Below, piece after piece: positions 5,380-53,912 of a DNA stretch of 64,000 bases. Source of the DNA: Candidatus Nanoarchaeia archaeon (lineage in GTDB: Archaea; Nanobdellota; Nanobdellia; Woesearchaeales; GW2011-AR9). Numbering within the stretch: the first letter of the stretch is position 1; each line of letters starts with the position of its first letter. The position numbers and the translations under genes were made by a program. Where the stretch lies: NCBI GenBank assembly GCA_035288985.1, contig DATDYP010000015.1, positions 27,119 to 91,118 on the forward strand, given 5' to 3'. Under the pieces are notes generated by a model. The model made no database searches. It saw only the letters and a program-made list of their open reading frames with translations, and had not been told where the DNA came from.

Positions 5380-5912
5380 TGATGGGAAAAGACCAAACTC
5401 CTGATTACAGACAAACCCATTCTATGCTTATTACTATTGATGGTCAGCGGTTAGATGATCGGCTGCAAGGGAGTTCACTTACTTTTGAAGGAGCTGCTGT
5501 TGCATTTCACTCGAGGCTTGATGCTAGACTCGATCCGTTGGAGCGTTCTGGATACAAGCGCGTGTACACTGTTTATGCAAGTCCAAGTGAAAATCCTCCG
5601 CCAGCATTTGGGAATTCCATACCGTTAGATGTATTATATCACTGTTTGGGTGTTGAGGGAGTGGATGGGGAGCGTGGTGCAGATACTCTTCAATTGGTCT
5701 TTCCCAACAGTTCTCTGGTTTTTCAAGACTATAAGCGGCTCGGACTTGATGTTACTTTCCTTGGCCAAACTCCTTATATGCTCCTAGTGGAAAGAAAACC
5801 TGAAACAAATAGGCGTATCTACCATGAAGGCGAGGCATCTTTGCTACGGAAGATTGGTGTGAGTTTGAGAATTCCTAATCCTTCTAATCAGCTTCTTTCT
5901 ATAAACCATTAA
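5376..5912 (+). CDS. Hypothetical protein (178 aa)
   Basis: ORF overlaps the wHTH gene stop by 4 nt (ATGA-type coupling). No recognisable motif. Confidence 0.45.
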   Translation: MMMGKDQTPDYRQTHSMLITIDGQRLDDRLQGSSLTFEGAAVAFHSRLDARLDPLERSGYKRVYTVYASPSENPPPAFGNSIPLDVLYHCLGVEGVDGERGADTLQLVFPNSSLVFQDYKRLGLDVTFLGQTPYMLLVERKPETNRRIYHEGEASLLRKIGVSLRIPNPSNQLLSINH

Positions 5913-6417
5913 GATAGTCATCGATTGACTTTCGTGCCCGGCACAGTCTTTGTGTTGTTGCTTCTACACTAATGCCCAGAATCCTACTTATCTCTCTTGG
6001 TTTGTATCCTTCCATTGAAAGATTTAGCACTTCCAAATTGCAAGCACTAATGCTTCCTTCTGCAAAACCATCCACTAATCCTGTTAATTCTTTGTTAACA
6101 GCCTCTTGTTCCGGCGTTGGCACTCCCGAGATTATGTTCTCATCTGTTGTCTCAAGCTGTTGTTCCGGACGGTATTTCCGAAAGTAATCCATCACTTTAT
6201 GTTTTGCAATGGCGCAAATCCACCCGTACACATTTTGTACCCTGGATCCTTCAATGGATTGGAAGGCTGCTATGAACGTTTCCTGGACCAGATCTTCCGT
6301 AATATCATTATTTCTGGTTAAGCGTGAGATAAAGCTTCTAACTCTTCTATAATTCTGCGTGTAAAGATCATCAAAATTAGCCAAGCCAGCCTTTTCATAG
6401 GGATTGGATTGTTTCAT
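5899..6417 (-). CDS. ECF-type RNA polymerase sigma-70 family factor
   Basis: Region 2-like segment: DLVQETFIAAFQSI...YGWICAIAKHKVMDYFRK. Region 4 HTH-like segment: LEVLNLSMEGYKPREISRILGISVEATTQRLCRARKSI. The 172-aa length fits group-4 sigma factors. Confidence 0.75.
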   Translation of the reverse strand: MKQSNPYEKAGLANFDDLYTQNYRRVRSFISRLTRNNDITEDLVQETFIAAFQSIEGSRVQNVYGWICAIAKHKVMDYFRKYRPEQQLETTDENIISGVPTPEQEAVNKELTGLVDGFAEGSISACNLEVLNLSMEGYKPREISRILGISVEATTQRLCRARKSIDDYLNGL

Positions 6418-19341: not shown

Positions 19342-19779
19342 TTATCGTTTCCAGTGCGTTTTTTCTTTGTGAAGGATCTCGGTAACTCTATGTAGTGGTA
19401 TAAAAACTTCTTTTCCTTTATCTAAAAATACTAAAAATTCTTTTTCAATGCGTTTCAGTTTGCCTGCATGCAGGAGGAGCTCTTTATCTTTCACATGATC
19501 TTTATATTTGAAATGGAACTCATGTTTTTGTGGATGGCGATGTACTTTTTTTGCTTCAGATTTAACTGGTTTTTCTATTTCCCAGAGAGGATTAGCATCC
19601 TTGAAAATAACTCCTGATAATCCTAACATTGTAATCCCTAAGACTAAACTCAGCCAGGGATTGGAGATGATAGGATGGATGTATCCTAGTCCGTCCCATA
19701 CTCCAGCCCAGAAAAACACTACTCCTATCGTTCCAAAGATATACCAAAAATATTTTTTAATGTCTTCGCCAGCAACCAT
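19342..19779 (-). CDS. Two-TM membrane protein with a C-terminal MJ1316/DUF504-like domain (paralog 2)
   Basis: Two TM helices, then FHFKYKDHVKDKE...FIPLHRVTEILHKEKTHWKR (an IPxHRI...W.R-type ending). Start moved to ATG 19779 (MVAGED), 1 nt after the upstream paralog's stop. Confidence 0.55.
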   Translation of the reverse strand: MVAGEDIKKYFWYIFGTIGVVFFWAGVWDGLGYIHPIISNPWLSLVLGITMLGLSGVIFKDANPLWEIEKPVKSEAKKVHRHPQKHEFHFKYKDHVKDKELLLHAGKLKRIEKEFLVFLDKGKEVFIPLHRVTEILHKEKTHWKR

Positions 19780-19780
19780 G

Positions 19781-20260
19781 TTATAATCTCCAATAGCGTT
19801 TTCCTTTATAGAGCACTTCACTAACTCTGTGCACAGGAATAAATAATTCTTGTTTTTGTTTTGGCGGCACTACTACCAAGGCGCCTTTTTCTATCTTTTT
19901 TACCCAAGCAGCAGGGATAGTAACATACTTTTTTTGTGCCTTGTCATAATACTTGAATTCAAAATTTTTCTTATCCTGATGCGCCTGTATGGAATGCAAG
20001 GTTTTGTCGACTGCCTTTTGGATCCCTCCTAAAGGGTCAAATTCTTTAAAGATAGCTCCGGAAATGGTGAGCATAGCAAAGCCCAAAAAGAGGAACACTA
20101 AAGGAGTACAAGTTTCAAGTTGAATAGAAGCCGGGCAGCTCAAGTCTCCTAGGAAAGGCACTTCATAAAGCCCGTCCCAAATTCCTTTCCAAGTGAAGAT
20201 AATGGCAATAGCTATGTATAAGGATGATAAGAAATGTTTATCCTGCTCACGTAATACCAC
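19781..20260 (-). CDS. Two-TM membrane protein with a C-terminal MJ1316/DUF504-like domain (paralog 1)
   Basis: Same architecture as the neighbour: FEFKYYDKAQKKY...FIPVHRVSEVLYKGKRYWRL. Confidence 0.55.
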   Translation of the reverse strand: MVLREQDKHFLSSLYIAIAIIFTWKGIWDGLYEVPFLGDLSCPASIQLETCTPLVFLFLGFAMLTISGAIFKEFDPLGGIQKAVDKTLHSIQAHQDKKNFEFKYYDKAQKKYVTIPAAWVKKIEKGALVVVPPKQKQELFIPVHRVSEVLYKGKRYWRL

Positions 20261-22083: not shown

Positions 22084-22439
22084 TTCAGTGAGGAATATAC
22101 AATTGTAGTATCCGGATATTTTTTCGTTTTTTCGCTGAGAAAACTCACCTTCGTTCGGGGTCACCGCCAACTCACTTTCCGCTACAACCTCCCTATTGCG
22201 GCTCCTATCAAAAACGTGAAACGTTTTTGGGAGGTTCCAGAAATCACTATTTCTGATACCTTCCCGTAAGGAGCAACCCCTAACGAAAATCGGAGATTTT
22301 CGGGAGGTTCCGGAAAATCGTTGTTTTCCGTTACCTTCCGCAATCAAGGATTATGCGGATTCTACCGTTCGTATTAAGGCGGTGACCCTTATTTTCTCAG
22401 CGAAATAATTTCGGGATACTTCAGTAAGGAATATACAAT
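22084..22439. repeat. Structured repeat element (about 312-bp core) flanked by 20-bp direct repeats; member of the intergenic repeat family
   Basis: Direct repeats TTCAGTGAGGAATATACAAT (22084-22103) and TTCAGTAAGGAATATACAAT (22420-22439) match 19/20. Terminal inverted repeats are GTATCCGGATA... (22108) and ...CGGGATAC (22419), followed by CGCTGAGAAAA / TTTTCTCAGCG and GGGTCACCGCC (22158) / GGCGGTGACCC (22378). The internal word CTCACCTTCGTTCGG matches CTCACTTCGTTCG of the element at 46846-47010. Confidence 0.65.
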
Positions 22440-27218: not shown

Positions 27219-30494
<3,276 letters not shown>

Positions 30495-33926: not shown

Positions 33927-35057
33927 ATGACCTTCACCATAACTCATCAGTCTGGAAACGCACGCGTAGGAAAGCTCAAGACAGCCCATGGCATCATCGA
34001 AACACCATTCTTTATGCCGGCAGCAACCAAGGCTACTGGAAAGTATCTTACCACTGATGATTATCAGAAAGCAGGAGTAAAAGCATTAATTTCCAATGCT
34101 TTAATCCTGAGTTTCAAACCAGGAATAGAGACAGTACAAAAATTATCTGGTCTGCACAATTTCATGAATTTTAAGGGTATTATCTTTACTGATTGCGGCG
34201 GATTCCAGATGTCCCGCACCATGTTCCAGACCAAGAGCAAGAAAGGGCTGCATTTCAGAAACCCGTTCGATAATAGCTCGGTGGTCATAACACCGCAAAA
34301 GATCATGAACATTGAATTAACCTTAGGCAGCGACGTAGCGATGATGCTGGATGACATGTCAGGATATGGAGTAAGCAAGGAAGAAGCCAGAATGGCAATG
34401 GAAAACACCCATCGCTGGGGCAAGGAATCTTTACAATGGCATCAGAAATTGAAAAATGATTCCAAACATTCCAAACAATTATTGTTTGGTATCGTGCAGG
34501 GCAATTTCTATCCTGACTTGCGAGAAGAATCCGCTAAATTCATCAACTCTCTTGATTTTGACGGTATTGCCATCGGTGGAGTAGCCATTGGTGAATCAAA
34601 GGAAGAGATGTATGCTGCTGTTGATGCGGCTCTGCCTTTTATTACTAAAGATAAGCCGCGGTATGTGATGGGTGTAGGAAGTCCTGAAGAGCTGCTGGAA
34701 TTGATTGGTAGAGGTATCGATTGTTTTGATTCTGTCTATCCAACGCAAAATGCAAGACACTGTACTCTTTTTACCGCTACTGGCCGGATATATATTGACG
34801 GATTAAAGTACCAACATGATTTTACTTCTATCGATAAGAAATGCAAGTGCCATACCTGTAAAAACTTTACGAAAGCATATTTACATCATCTTACCAAAAT
34901 AAAAGAACCAGCTGCAAAAAGATTGATGAGCATCCACAATCTTTACTTTGTGCTTCAGCTGATAGAGAAAGCGAAGAAAAATATTAAGACAGGGACATTT
35001 ACAGAGTTTAAGGATGGTTTTTTGAGGAAGTGGAATAGTAATAAGAAAGAGAACTAG
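33927..35057 (+). CDS. tgt: tRNA-guanine transglycosylase, catalytic domain only (376 aa)
   Basis: TPFFMPAATK, FTDCGGFQ, LFGIVQGNFYPDLR, FDGIAIGGVAIGE, YVMGVGSPEELLELIGRGIDCFDSVYPT, Zn site CKCHTC...H. No C-terminal PUA-type extension. Confidence 0.85.
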   Translation: MTFTITHQSGNARVGKLKTAHGIIETPFFMPAATKATGKYLTTDDYQKAGVKALISNALILSFKPGIETVQKLSGLHNFMNFKGIIFTDCGGFQMSRTMFQTKSKKGLHFRNPFDNSSVVITPQKIMNIELTLGSDVAMMLDDMSGYGVSKEEARMAMENTHRWGKESLQWHQKLKNDSKHSKQLLFGIVQGNFYPDLREESAKFINSLDFDGIAIGGVAIGESKEEMYAAVDAALPFITKDKPRYVMGVGSPEELLELIGRGIDCFDSVYPTQNARHCTLFTATGRIYIDGLKYQHDFTSIDKKCKCHTCKNFTKAYLHHLTKIKEPAAKRLMSIHNLYFVLQLIEKAKKNIKTGTFTEFKDGFLRKWNSNKKEN

Positions 35058-45031: not shown

Positions 45032-45119
45032 CGGGCCGGAAGGGATTTGAACCCTCGACCGCTTGATGTCCTTCAGCTTGCTAAAAGTCAAGCGCTCTAC
45101 CAAGCTAAGCTACCGGCCC
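45032..45119 (-). tRNA. tRNA-Lys(UUU) with one 14-nt intron at 37/38
   Basis: Acceptor GGGCCGG/CCGGCCC. D arm GCTT-AGCTTGGTA-GAGC. Anticodon stem CTTGA/TCAAG. Loop CTTTTA[intron 45068-45081]A. T arm GAGGG-TTCAAAT-CCCTT. Discriminator G, no encoded CCA. Confidence 0.85.
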
Positions 45120-45163
45120 ACGCTGGAGTGGAAAGGCCAAATCATGCGATTTGGCCAGTCAAG

Positions 45164-45321
45164 CGCCCTGGCCGGGATTTTCTTTGATTGTCAATCAACT
45201 ACAACCACCTTTGAACCCGGGTCGAAGCCTTGCTGTAAACTCCCGAAGGTCTCTTTTGATGAAACTTTTCGTAAAAGTTTCCGACAGGGCTTCATGCTAG
45301 GCCGAACTACACTACCAGGGC
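45164..45321 (-). tRNA. tRNA-Asp(GUC) with two introns (37/38 and T-loop 59/60)
   Basis: Acceptor GCCCTGG/CCAGGGC. D arm GTGT-AGTTCGGCCTA-GCAT. Anticodon stem AAGCC/GGCTT. Loop CTGTCG|A. Intron 1 (51 nt, 45231-45281) sits in a textbook BHB: AAAC:GTTT, bulge CGG, CTGT:ACAG, bulge CAA, AAGCC:GGCTT. Intron 2 (32 nt, 45178-45209) splits the T-loop TTCAAA|T between T-stem halves CCGGG/CCCGG. Mature length 75 nt. Confidence 0.8.
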
Positions 45322-45434
45322 AGTAGTGATGACAGCGCTTCTTCTACAGGTCATCTGTTTTAGAGAGTGAATTGTAGAGAACCGGCTGCCATTTTCCAGC
45401 TAAAACTACGGCTTGTTTATAAAGCTTTCTATTT

Positions 45435-46070
45435 TTAGTTAAGAAAGGGAAGAACTTTCCTTAAATCATCGCCTTCTACAACATGGCTTGCCGCTTCTTT
45501 CAATTCCTTTGATTTTGAGTTGAAGGCGATGGATAAGCCGACGTACTCACAGGCATGAATATCGCTTTCCGAATCACCAATGAAGATCACTTCTTCTGGC
45601 GGTATGCCTAAATCTTTACAAAGGTGGCTGATGATCTCTACTTTTTTCTCCGTACCTGCTCCCAGCGGCCAGACAAACTCGCCAGTTACGAGGTTATTTT
45701 TAATGATAAGTTCATTGGCATAAATGAAATCGATGCCCAGATCGTGCTGCGCTCTTCGTGCCAAATCAATGCTTCCGCTGCTTACAATTGCTACCAGCAA
45801 GTCCTGTTTTTTGATCTGACGAAAAAGCTCCTGTACGCCATCAGAATAGGGTATTGTTTTTACCAGACTATAATACGATGTTGCATCTTTTCCTTTCCAT
45901 AGCTTGGTGACGACTTCTTCCACTAACTTGGCGTAATTAGTATAGAGGTATTTTTTCGTCAGTTTCTTTCCTTCTTCCAAGGTGCCAAATACTTCATGCA
46001 GCCGTAACCAGAAGTTGCTGTCCTTAAAGATGACTCCGTCCATGTCGAAGCAGATGAGTTTATATGTCAT
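45435..46070 (-). CDS. HAD-superfamily hydrolase (phosphoserine-phosphatase-like subfamily)
   Basis: Motif I ICFDMDGVIF, motif II IVSSGS, motif IV FIGDSESDI. Confidence 0.75.
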   Translation of the reverse strand: MTYKLICFDMDGVIFKDSNFWLRLHEVFGTLEEGKKLTKKYLYTNYAKLVEEVVTKLWKGKDATSYYSLVKTIPYSDGVQELFRQIKKQDLLVAIVSSGSIDLARRAQHDLGIDFIYANELIIKNNLVTGEFVWPLGAGTEKKVEIISHLCKDLGIPPEEVIFIGDSESDIHACEYVGLSIAFNSKSKELKEAASHVVEGDDLRKVLPFLN

Positions 46071-46100
46071 AGTAAATCTGCCCTAGTAATTGAAAGGAAG

Positions 46101-46281
46101 TCCCCCCTCCCGGATTTTCATGCAACAAATACTTGATTGCTATTCGAACCGGGGATCCCTCGGTAGCTATTGGCTGGCTCTTTTTCATATAAGTCTTGAC
46201 GACACTTCCAAAGAGCATCTACAGCCGAGTGTTCTAGCCGTTGTTCCCTATTTTTTTTAGATAGGTCTAAACTAAGGGGGG
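46101..46281 (-). tRNA. tRNA-Tyr(GUA) with three introns (D-loop 15/16, 37/38, T-loop 59/60)
   Basis: Exons: CCCCCCT TA GTTT AG | C GGCTA GAAC A CTCGG CTGTAG | A CCGAG GGATC CCCGG TTCGAA | T CCGGG AGGGGGG A (73 nt mature). Introns: 26 nt (46241-46266), 54 nt (46165-46218), 28 nt (46115-46142). BHBs: GTTT:GAAC with bulges AGA/AAC; CTGT:ATAG with bulges AGA/CTA; TTCG:TGAA with bulges AAT/AAT. Confidence 0.75.
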
Positions 46282-46845: not shown

Positions 46846-47010
46846 AGGCTCTGTCCTAAAGTCAGCGCCATCAGGTCAAAACTCCTCCTTTCTTCTCCAT
46901 CTGGCGCGTCGCGAGGGGTCGCTCCCTACGGGAACGCAGCGCAATACTTTAAACAGAAGCGAGAGTTTTGAAGGCGCTGAACGAACGAAGTGAGATTTAG
47001 GACAGAGCCT
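46846..47010. repeat. 165-bp element with perfect 15-bp terminal inverted repeats (intergenic repeat family)
   Basis: AGGCTCTGTCCTAAA (46846-46860) pairs with TTTAGGACAGAGCCT (46996-47010). Internal pairs: CAGCGCC/GGCGCTG and TCAAAACTC/GAGTTTTGA. The right end in reverse complement (GGCTCTGTCCTAAATCTCACT) matches the left end of the element at 53628 with one mismatch. Confidence 0.7.
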
Positions 47011-47057: not shown

Positions 47058-47153
47058 GCGGTAGTAGTATAGTGGTTAGTATACGGCCTTGCCAGAGATT
47101 TTGTAAAAGTCTGTAATGAGGCTGTGACCGGGGTTCGACTCCCCGCTACCGCA
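47058..47153 (+). tRNA. tRNA-Gly(GCC) with one 24-nt intron at 37/38
   Basis: Acceptor GCGGTAG/CTACCGC. D arm GTAT-AGTGGTTA-GTAT. Anticodon stem CGGCC/GGCTG. Loop TTGCCA[intron 47095-47118]A. T arm CGGGG-TTCGACT-CCCCG. Discriminator A. T-run after the 3' end. Confidence 0.85.
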
Positions 47154-47806: not shown

Positions 47807-48002
47807 TGGCCCTGCCGGGACTTTCAAAGCTTCTCTCGTTGTGTGGGGCTGAGCGCAGCGAATGCCGCACCTCGCTCCGGGTTGGCGAAAGAACCCCTTT
47901 GAACCCAGGACCTCTGGCTGTCCAAGCTGATTAATGGCATGTTTGCGTGAACCATTAACGGTCATATAAGACCAGCGCTCAACCAGGCTAAGCTACAGGG
48001 CC
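47807..48002 (-). tRNA. tRNA-Ile, apparent anticodon UAU, with two introns (37/38 and T-loop 59/60)
   Basis: Acceptor GGCCCTG/CAGGGCC. D arm GCTT-AGCCTGGTT-GAGC. Anticodon stem CTGGT/GCCAG. Loop CTTATA|A. Variable AGGTC. T stem CTGGG/CCCGG. T-loop TTCAAA|T. Discriminator A. Intron 1 is about 45 nt (47920-47964; its BHB is relaxed, CTTA:TTGG). Intron 2 is 77 nt (47821-47897) with a perfect central helix TTCA:TGAA and bulges AAG/AGT. The body resembles archaeal tRNA-Ile. Confidence 0.65.
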
Positions 48003-51421: not shown

Positions 51422-51544
51422 GCCCCGGTGGTGTAGACGATAAATCAATCTTTGATTTATTGACACTCTCCGGACTATCATACTGCCCTTTCGTCCAGAA
51501 AGGGAAGATAGGCAGTGACCCGGGTTCGAATCCCGGCCGGGGCA
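51422..51544 (+). tRNA. tRNA-Glu(UUC) with two introns (D-loop 15/16 and 37/38)
   Basis: Exons: GCCCCGG TG GTGT AG | TCCGGACTA TCAT A CTGCC CTTTCG | A GGCAG TGAC CCGGG TTCGAAT CCCGG CCGGGGC A (75 nt). The D-loop intron is 32 nt (51437-51468), with BHB GTGT:ACAC, bulges AGA/TCT, and outer helix CGATAAATCAA:TTGATTTATTG. The anticodon intron is 16 nt (51494-51509), with BHB CTTT:GAAG and bulges CGT/ATA. T-run terminator follows. Confidence 0.8.
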
Positions 51545-53627: not shown

Positions 53628-53912
53628 GGGCTCTGTCCTGAATCTCACTCATGAAAATAAACAACGATTTATTTTCAGAGCTGAAATGAAGTCGTTGCTT
53701 TATTTCAGGCTTTGTTCGGGTTAGCGTGACCTCGCTTTTGGGAAATATGATAATAATGCGGCATCCCCGTACATGAAATTAAGAAACTACTTAATTTCAG
53801 TACAGAAAATCAATAGGTTTTGATTTTCTTGTAAGGGACAACCCCCTGCCGCAATCAATGCAATATCCAAGAAACGCTCGTACTCACACGCTAACCACAT
53901 TCAAGACAGATC
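53628..53912. repeat. 285-bp element of the same inverted-repeat family, with extra internal perfect hairpins
   Basis: The left end GGGCTCTGTCCTGAATCTCACT pairs imperfectly with the right end ...ATTCAAGACAGATC. Inner pair GGTTAGCGTG/CACGCTAACC. The word CTTTGTTCGGGTTAGCG resembles CTTCGTTCGGGGTCACCG of element 22084. Four perfect 9-10-bp hairpins are present (for example TGAAAATAAA/TTTATTTTCA and TGAAATTAAG/CTTAATTTCA). Confidence 0.65.

Follow-up and report, generated by a model that had tools for sequence, protein, structure and literature searches.

Interrupted tRNA genes in a 64-kb stretch of a Woesearchaeota-type archaeal genome and in its relatives

The 64-kb stretch of DNA considered here (contig DATDYP010000015.1; "the window" below always means this whole stretch) raises the question of whether six loci with insertions at several positions are working transfer RNA (tRNA) genes and, if so, how the insertions would be removed. 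A preliminary description, based on folding the sequence by hand, had proposed 11 introns in six tRNAs (Lys 1, Asp 2, Tyr 3, Gly 1, Ile 2, Glu 2). Our analysis leads us to consider it very probable, from sequence and its comparison among relatives, that the six loci are functional tRNA genes belonging to a DPANN archaeon of the Woesearchaeota/Nanoarchaeota type, each with one to three archaeal introns spliced by proteins.

Six tRNA genes and the geometry of their introns

All 11 proposed introns were located where they had been placed. The window contains tRNA-Lys(UUU), Asp(GUC), Tyr(GUA), Gly(GCC), Ile(UAU) and Glu(UUC), and every one of these genes is interrupted, with 1.83 introns per gene and intron sizes from 14 to 77 nucleotides (nt). 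Six introns lie at position 37/38, three in the T-loop at 59/60 (Asp, Tyr and Ile) and two in the D-loop at 15/16 (Tyr and Glu); for the latter two sites our assignments agree with those proposed earlier. Once the introns are removed, spliced tRNAs of 72-75 nt are obtained, as had been anticipated, and ARAGORN called all six as standard cloverleaves with the expected anticodon. The acceptor, anticodon and T stems had been described as fully complementary; they are completely paired, provided that G-U pairs are allowed. The spliced tRNAs carry U8, G18G19, U33, GTTCRA T-loops and G53:C61, the spliced Tyr shows the identity features C1:G72 and A73, and every gene keeps its exons in colinear order within a span of 88-196 nt.

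The defining feature of archaeal introns is a bulge-helix-bulge (BHB) motif, in which the splice junction fixes which four exon bases pair with four intron bases. We used this property as a register test, scoring the 4-base-pair (bp) central helix at the predicted junction of each intron and taking off-register positions as controls. The central helix was perfect (4/4) in nine of the 11 introns and 3/4 in the other two, the Asp intron at 59/60 and the Ile intron at 37/38, while a perfect helix occurred in 3.9% of the off-register controls (binomial P ~1e-11), which bears out the earlier statement that most of the introns sit in BHB motifs. Six introns have the strict hBHBh' form (Lys, Asp 37/38, Tyr 37/38, Gly, Ile 59/60 and Glu 37/38). 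The other five are relaxed, namely the two D-loop introns (HBh'), the Asp and Tyr T-loop introns (hBH) and the Ile 37/38 intron with its one mismatch. The 37/38 and 59/60 sites are structural twins: each consists of a 5-bp stem and a loop of 7 nt, in which the cut follows the sixth base and the first four bases form the exon half of the central helix. At 15/16, the exon half is the 5' strand of the D-stem and the outer helix is absent. The pairing of this strand with the intron (GTTT:GAAC in Tyr, GTGT:ACAC in Glu) had been noticed before, with the intron partner described as a copy of the D-stem 3' strand in both genes; the pairing stands, but the Glu D-stem 3' strand is TCAT, so that the intron ACAC is a better complement and not a copy.

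One could object that the pattern is an artefact of assembly or binning, or that deletions were hand-picked until a cloverleaf appeared. The exons were indeed first derived by manual folding, and three free deletions always allow some stems to form. Against this objection, ARAGORN independently finds all six spliced sequences, and the junctions predicted from the cloverleaf coincide with the BHB register at the probability given above; the evidence from related genomes, which bears on the same objection, is described in the next section.

Four observations weigh against reading the loci as tRNA genes with protein-spliced introns. The central helix is imperfect in the two introns named above. 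The 59/60 boundaries of Asp (by 3 nt) and Tyr are ambiguous and can slide by 3-4 nt because of runs of A, and for both genes the BHB register picks 59/60. Plain minimum free energy (MFE) folding forms the predicted central helix in three of the 11 introns, which is usual for BHB motifs and gives no positive support, and it was therefore the register test with off-register controls that we relied on instead; in Glu intron 1 the local MFE fold does contain the GTGT:ACAC helix. Finally, neither the splicing endonuclease EndA nor the ligase RtcB was found in the window by Pfam scans of ~50 open reading frames (ORFs), and motif regular expressions and a tblastn search with a presumed M. jannaschii EndA sequence were also empty, both in the window and in the 80 related loci described below (L001-L080).

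The Lys, Asp and Tyr genes follow one another on the minus strand. The tRNA-Lys(UUU) gene (45032-45119) has exons at 45082-45119 and 45032-45067 (74 nt spliced) and a strict 14-nt intron at 37/38 (45068-45081) with the helix CTTT:AAGG (4/4), bulges TAG and ACA, an outer helix of 7 bp and an inner helix of 2 bp. The tRNA-Asp(GUC) gene (45164-45321) has exons at 45282-45321, 45210-45230 and 45164-45177 (75 nt spliced). Its first intron (45231-45281, 51 nt, 37/38) is strict, with the helix CTGT:ACAG (4/4), outer 7 bp and inner 8 bp, and its second (45178-45209, 32 nt, T-loop 59/60) is a relaxed hBH motif in which TTCA:AGAA pairs at 3/4, the 5-bp T stem serves as outer helix and there is no inner helix. 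The 44-nt spacer between the two genes (45120-45163) contains an 8-bp hairpin and the Lys gene lacks a TATA box of its own; Asp and Lys are therefore probably co-transcribed. The sole clear TATA-like box for Asp is ~90 nt upstream (within 45322-45434), implying a long leader. The three-intron tRNA-Tyr(GUA) gene (46101-46281) has exons at 46267-46281, 46219-46240, 46143-46164 and 46101-46114 (73 nt spliced). Its D-loop intron at 15/16 (46241-46266, 26 nt) is a relaxed HBh' motif with GTTT:GAAC (4/4), bulges AGA and AAC, no outer helix and an inner helix of 5 bp; the 37/38 intron (46165-46218, 54 nt) is strict, with CTGT:ATAG (4/4), outer 5 bp and inner 2 bp; and the T-loop intron at 59/60 (46115-46142, 28 nt) is a relaxed hBH motif with TTCG:TGAA (4/4), bulges AAT and AAT, the 5-bp T stem as outer helix and no inner pairs.

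The three remaining genes lie further along. The tRNA-Gly(GCC) gene (47058-47153, plus strand; exons 47058-47094 and 47119-47153, 72 nt spliced) contains a strict 24-nt intron at 37/38 (47095-47118) with TTGC:GTAA (4/4) and outer and inner helices of 7 bp each. The tRNA-Ile(UAU) gene (47807-48002, minus strand; exons 47965-48002, 47898-47919 and 47807-47820, 74 nt spliced) has a 45-nt intron at 37/38 (47920-47964), relaxed by one mismatch in the central helix (CTTA:TTGG, 3/4; outer 5 bp, inner 1 bp), and a 77-nt T-loop intron at 59/60 (47821-47897), which is strict, with TTCA:TGAA (4/4) and outer and inner helices of 5 bp each; this second intron is G+C-rich (0.61) and structured (MFE -30.3 kcal/mol). 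The codon AUA is thus decoded by a tRNA-Ile with a genome-encoded UAU anticodon, as has been reported in the ARMAN lineages, rather than by one with a CAU anticodon modified to agmatidine, and the anticodon loop CTTATAA is unchanged in nine sequences, the window counted. The tRNA-Glu(UUC) gene (51422-51544, plus strand; exons 51422-51436, 51469-51493 and 51510-51544, 75 nt spliced) has a 32-nt D-loop intron at 15/16 (51437-51468), a relaxed HBh' motif with GTGT:ACAC (4/4), bulges AGA and TCT, a single outer pair and an inner helix of 11 bp, and a strict 16-nt intron at 37/38 (51494-51509) with CTTT:GAAG (4/4), outer 7 bp and inner 2 bp. Read from the sequence, TATA-like boxes stand ~22-37 nt upstream of Tyr, Gly, Ile and Glu, and T-runs follow Gly, Ile and Glu.

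The same genes in related genomes

The window is placed by its RpoB'' sequence in a DPANN archaeon of the Woesearchaeota/Nanoarchaeota type: the protein is 62-86% identical to those of 80 metagenome-assembled genomes (MAGs) labelled Woesearchaeota, Nanoarchaeota or Nanoarchaeia, the closest genome in the collection searched having ~86% identity. Many MAGs with RpoB'' 64-86% identical are deposited as 'uncultured Methanosarcinales archaeon', which is an evident taxonomic mislabel. The tRNA genes of the window adjoin an archaeal rpoH-rpoB''-rpoB'-rpoA'-rpoA'' operon, which is followed by genes for a NusA-like KH protein, S12 and S7.

We compared the six spliced tRNAs with 80 related loci (L001-L080) using a custom spliced aligner, which aligns a mature tRNA to a genome and permits long gaps, and recovered orthologues in 69 related genomes. 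Spurious spliced alignments reached at most ~0.6 of the maximum score and contained 4-10 'introns', whereas the real ones scored 0.90-0.97 with 1-3. Many MAGs assembled independently in different studies show the same exon/intron structures, and together with the ARAGORN calls and the BHB register this leaves the idea of an artefact or of hand-picked deletions with next to no credibility. A Tyr-Asp-Lys cluster directly upstream of the rpoB'' match, frequently with Gly close by, is widely conserved. The exons are conserved and their stems change in a compensatory manner, as in the Tyr acceptor stem (CCCCCCT/AGGGGGG, CCCTCCA/TGGGGGG, CCCCGCT/AGCGGGG) and the Lys T stem (GAGGG/CCCTT, GCGAG/CTCGT, GGGGG/CCCCT). 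The introns keep fixed positions, vary in length from ~12 to ~150 nt, or are absent.

In orthologues that lack a given intron, the sequence at the junction is exactly the one predicted for the window. The Tyr D-loop reads AGCGGCTA in three orthologues without the D-loop intron (L013, L014 and L069), Tyr orthologues without the T-loop intron have a TTCRAAT T-loop, and the Glu D-loop of L008, which has no D-loop intron, reads AGTCCGGACTA, identical to that of the window. With the Rfam tRNA model, orthologues that have no intron or a single one reach 52-74 bits. The spliced Lys of the window is identical to the intron-less Lys of L058 (72.4 bits), the intron-less Asp orthologues of L022 and L056 score 60.5 and 55.7 bits, and the Ile orthologue of L058 scores 56.6 bits.

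The six tRNA families contain 313 introns over the 80 loci, window included, of which 166 are at 37/38, 86 at 59/60 and nine at 15/16, with smaller groups near 20/21, 22/23 and 45/46 in the relatives. The central helix is 4/4 in 61% of these introns and at least 3/4 in 90%, compared with 3.9% and 32% of the controls. Two introns are the commonest state, the mean is ~1.7 introns per gene, and intron-less genes make up only 11 of 198 orthologous genes. With ~94% of these genes interrupted, the heavy intron load is, on the evidence of the sequences compared, a trait of the clade and not a peculiarity of the source genome, whose 1.83 introns per gene are ordinary for the clade.

These comparisons also bear on the possibility that the interrupted loci are decaying pseudogenes, or copies disrupted by mobile elements, with intact intron-less genes elsewhere in the genome. 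Some room for it is left by the fact that 64 kb of the genome is visible, and mobile elements do insert beside the tRNA genes (see below for 46846-47009). Yet interrupted genes have been kept beside rpoH-rpoB in dozens of independent MAGs, with compensatory exon changes and fixed intron positions; intron-less orthologues are as rare as just stated; and the inserts show BHB geometry. Small DPANN genomes usually have one gene per isoacceptor, which also speaks against hidden intact copies. We regard the pseudogene explanation as very improbable.

Most window introns are common to the nearest relatives. The Asp 37/38 intron shares 96% identity with its L008 counterpart at this position, and the Tyr 37/38 intron is 91-94% identical to those of L013 (94%), L008 and L005. 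Asp T-loop introns occur in 45 orthologues, in the 59/60 register in 35 of them. The Tyr 15/16 intron has counterparts at the same site in L005, L007, L008, L012, L032 and L066, where the inner helix has changed in a compensatory way, and introns orthologous to the Glu 15/16 intron are found in L010 and L047. A correlation of RpoB'' identity to the window with intron load gave a Spearman rho of 0.15 (P 0.22), so that the subclade of the window is not demonstrably richer in introns.

Near-identical 59/60 introns were also found in different tRNAs of the relatives: Tyr and Ile of L013 (94% over 36 nt), Tyr of L069 and Ile of L007 (95% over 41 nt, 92% over 37 nt), and Tyr of L012 and Gly of L008 (91% over 33 nt). 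The same intron type is present at 59/60 in a three-intron tRNA-Thr(UGU) (L018:3420-3640, plus strand). Such pairs indicate transposition of introns or gene conversion between T-loops, and the sequences as a whole suggest that the introns were mostly inherited within the clade while 59/60 introns also moved between tRNA genes in relatives. It had been proposed that this genome underwent intron proliferation at a small set of preferred sites. The preferred sites are real, as 37/38, 59/60 and 15/16 dominate in the relatives, and near-identical 59/60 introns are in line with proliferation; the proliferation is a property of the clade, however, and not an event in the source genome.

Longer introns share sequence modules. 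Ile intron 2 has a GGCATTC...CAGCCCCAC module (47843-47866 of the window) in common with the Ile 59/60 introns of L008 and L031. The long introns of L007, L013, L040, L045 and L049 share a module composed of CAAGTG, an 8-bp hairpin and CACGA, of which the GGCATTC...CAGCCCCAC module is a related variant, and one copy of the CAAGTG module lies outside any tRNA, upstream of rpoH (L068:4528-4559, plus strand). When the CAAGTG-hairpin-CACGA module was checked by hand as a possible K-turn, it did not fit the K-turn consensus.

Between tRNA-Tyr and tRNA-Gly lies a miniature inverted-repeat transposable element (MITE; 46846-47009, minus strand), a 164-nt hairpin with a 14-bp terminal stem for which Rfam has no family. 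A loose scan had returned this interval as an extra tRNA candidate with a perfect 7-bp 'acceptor', which we rejected in favor of the MITE. Its terminal 20-mer is present in 31 metagenome contigs, many copies are flanked by 9-10-bp direct repeats (target-site duplications), and the same termini bracket a DDE_Tnp_1 transposase gene (L097:538-1441). Diverged copies of the same MITE superfamily occur in the window at 53629 to ~53910 (plus strand), which folds with z = -8.3, and at ~22125-22400 (plus strand), and in relatives at L008:8850-9020 (minus strand) and L010:7531-7695 (plus strand); some copies of the superfamily have other terminal repeats, share a conserved core hairpin (GUUCCCGUAAGGGAGCAACCCCU-like, with covariation) and contain nested hairpin insertions. 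A 13-nt motif from the MITE subterminus, CTCACTTCGTTCG, also appears in hairpin loops of some long introns of relatives. We considered whether the long introns could be MITE insertions on account of this shared motif, but an nhmmer search with the MITE profile matched no tRNA intron and the idea is unsupported. No terminal inverted repeats of the MITE type and no 9-10-bp duplications were seen at the intron boundaries when the junctions were read by eye, without a formal scan. Both negative results also count against the disruption of these tRNA genes by mobile elements.

A further observation concerns a Woesearchaeota MAG (L032:2375-2592, plus strand; JAZDQB010000035.1), in which the orthologous tRNA-Tyr(GUA) has four introns, at 15/16 (24 nt), 37/38 (50 nt), 45/46 (29 nt) and 59/60 (42 nt). 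The central helices, in that order, are 4/4, 3/4, 4/4 and 4/4, and ARAGORN accepted the spliced product. Four-intron calls were also returned for Gly (L031, L039 and L057) and Ile (L058); these are aligner artefacts, with long 'introns' inside acceptor stems. In the parts of PMC3239211 drawn on here the published maximum is given as three introns per tRNA gene, and a literature search on four introns returned no archaeal four-intron tRNA. The tRNA-Tyr of L032 lies above that maximum.

Proposed removal of the introns

The mechanism that we propose follows from the geometry of the junctions and from established archaeal tRNA splicing, in which EndA cleaves and RtcB joins (PMC4090602). In the precursor, 4 nt near the 3' end of the intron would pair with four exon nucleotides, the last of them 2 nt short of the 5' splice site; these are positions 32-35 for the 37/38 introns, 54-57 for the 59/60 introns and the 5' strand of the D-stem (10-13) for the 15/16 introns. 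The resulting 4-bp helix would be flanked by two 3-nt bulges, and EndA would cut between the second and third bulge nucleotide, leaving 2',3'-cyclic phosphate and 5'-OH ends. Until excised, the HBh' introns at 15/16 would keep the 5' strand of the D-stem sequestered. Since the three motifs of pre-tRNA-Tyr appear local and independent, any cutting order would be possible. An RtcB-type ligase would then join the exons, and the D- and T-loops would be free for the tertiary fold. From the motifs and the published enzymology we infer the enzymes, the splicing itself and the breadth of the EndA specificity: the introns are most likely excised by a broad-specificity EndA and the exons ligated by an enzyme of the RtcB type.

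A different account would have the 15/16 and 59/60 insertions removed otherwise than by EndA, through self-splicing or through separate transcription and trans-joining, or retained in the mature tRNA as expanded loops. It draws on the fact that the five introns outside the anticodon loop mostly have relaxed motifs, while the classic alpha4 EndA is reported to cut strict BHB motifs only (PMC3239211). At 14-77 nt, however, the introns are far below the size of group I/II ribozymes, and neither Rfam at its gathering threshold nor relaxed Rfam searches (E up to 10), one of them on a 3-kb slice, matched a group I/II or other ribozyme family to the window introns. The exons are colinear in one locus, with no sign of split or permuted genes. 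Retained inserts are disfavored, since 26-77 nt of extra sequence in the D- or T-loop would abolish the tertiary interaction of G18/G19 with the T-loop. The exact BHB register is kept at the non-canonical sites, with 4/4 in four of the five introns, and the same motif types are cut in vitro by broad-specificity EndAs (PMC3239211, PMC5829648). We find removal by other means, or retention, highly unlikely, and return to excision by EndA.

In vitro, only EndAs that possess an additional specificity loop have cleaved relaxed HBh' and hBH motifs at non-canonical sites (PMC3239211, PMC5829648). With five relaxed motifs in the window, a broad-specificity EndA would therefore be needed according to this enzymology, as the preliminary description had anticipated. 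The DPANN literature suggests an alpha4 EndA with an 'L3' insert, as DPANN lineages with an L3-bearing EndA have many disrupted tRNA genes (PMC5829648). Two side observations follow. Two tandem overlapping ORFs of 159 aa each (19342-19821 and 19781-20260, both on the minus strand) contain the MJ1316 'RNA cyclic group end recognition' domain and may have to do with 2',3'-cyclic phosphate ends of the kind that EndA leaves. A TGT-family tRNA-guanine transglycosylase of 376 aa, consisting of the catalytic domain only, is encoded at 33927-35057 (plus strand); if it acts on G15 as the archaeosine enzyme, the base that it targets would be the last exon nucleotide before the Tyr and Glu 15/16 introns.

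Three known systems are close to the one described here. The multi-intron tRNAs of the Thermoproteales (Crenarchaeota), from Sugahara 2008 and Fujishima 2010 as reviewed in PMC4090602, have up to three BHB introns per gene, non-canonical sites that include 59/60, near-identical introns in different tRNAs that were read as transposition, and a heavy dependence on a broad-specificity endonuclease. They differ in belonging to the TACK lineage rather than to DPANN and in having an (alpha-beta)2 EndA with a Crenarchaea-specific loop, whereas the literature points here to an alpha4 enzyme with the L3 insert. Their list of sites (20/21, 22/23, 25/26, 29/30, 30/31, 45/46, 53/54, 56/57, 59/60 'etc.') omits 15/16 (PMC4090602), while here the introns are at few sites, 37/38, then 59/60, then 15/16. 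ARMAN-2 (Ca. Micrarchaeum), also DPANN, has 56% of its tRNA genes disrupted and an epsilon2 EndA that cleaves 59/60 hBH introns in vitro, cleavage having been shown for both motif types (PMC3239211). It shares with the window the relaxed hBH introns at 59/60 and a tRNA-Ile(UAU) with a 37/38 intron. The load is higher here, with six of six genes in the window, ~94% of the clade orthologues and a mean of ~1.7 per gene, and D-loop 15/16 introns are not described for ARMAN-2 in the parts of PMC3239211 drawn on.

Methanopyrus kandleri offers the closest parallel for tRNA-Glu, as the same Glu(UUC) isoacceptor has one 37/38 intron and one relaxed HBh' D-loop intron (PMC5829648). This D-loop intron lies further 3' (the fragment A21 to G37 is cited); it is efficiently removed by the (alpha-beta)2 EndA of Aeropyrum pernix (APE) and cut poorly by the organism's own EndA, an (alpha-beta)2 enzyme without the specific loop (PMC5829648).

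Detection and significance

The difficulty of finding such genes had been foreseen, and our searches of the window agree. ARAGORN with default settings found two of the six genes and mislabelled both; Gly, for example, was called Tyr, and was recognized as Gly(GCC) with the intron search or once spliced. With the intron search (-i) three of six were found, Glu being called 'Pro'. Rfam at the gathering threshold recovered two of six (Lys with 60.6 bits and Gly with 53 bits), and its relaxed mode added Glu (41.7 bits). Asp, Tyr and Ile were missed by ARAGORN in both modes and by Rfam at the gathering threshold, in relaxed mode and on a 3-kb slice. No intron-less tRNA was detected in the 64 kb by ARAGORN or Rfam. 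A looser custom scan gave many false positives and no further convincing tRNA, G+C-rich tRNA-like stems being confined to the six known genes, and a scan for GC islands was uninformative.

Two other genes in the window are recorded here as side observations. An intein (Intein_splicing domain, residues 457-881) interrupts a GyrB gene of 1083 aa (27219-30470, minus strand). A 172-aa ORF (5899-6417, minus strand) has sigma-70 region 2 and region 4 domains of bacterial type although the genome is archaeal, and may come from horizontal transfer.

Much of what the window displays has already been published for other archaea: up to three introns per tRNA, the 59/60 site, hBH and HBh' motifs, a DPANN tRNA-Ile(UAU), intron transposition and the link between the DPANN EndA insert and disrupted genes (PMC4090602, PMC3239211, PMC5829648). 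For tRNA disruption in Woesearchaeota, full-text searches found only PMC5829648, at summary level; one Woesearchaeota genome (RBG_13_36_6) is among those analyzed there, and the main text, in the parts drawn on, gives no gene-level description for Woesearchaeota. The same paper takes incomplete tRNA sets to point to undetected disrupted genes, and the window is a concrete case of such undetected DPANN genes. New here are the gene-level description for the lineage, the clade-wide extent of ~94%, 59/60 as the dominant second hot spot and the recurrent 15/16 introns. A wider proposal, which we offer tentatively and would not favor as yet, is that DPANN archaea of the Woesearchaeales type possibly have the heaviest tRNA intron load described, with ~94% of genes interrupted, maintained by an EndA of the alpha4 type bearing an unconventional insert for specificity, and fed by mobile structured 59/60 introns hopping between T-loops (Tyr, Ile, Gly, Lys, Thr), perhaps exchanging modules with the co-resident MITE family.

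Nothing in these results overturns current understanding; they extend it to a poorly described lineage and supply concrete test substrates. In a lineage of the Woesearchaeota type, at least half of the tRNA genes escape the standard finders, and the apparent 'missing tRNAs' of DPANN MAGs are at least partly an artefact of detection, which bears on completeness estimates and on claims of host dependence. A clade with ~1.7 introns per tRNA gene is also a natural system for studying how a simple EndA gains broad specificity, and it is suited to asking why introns gather at sites that resemble the anticodon loop and how BHB introns move between genes.

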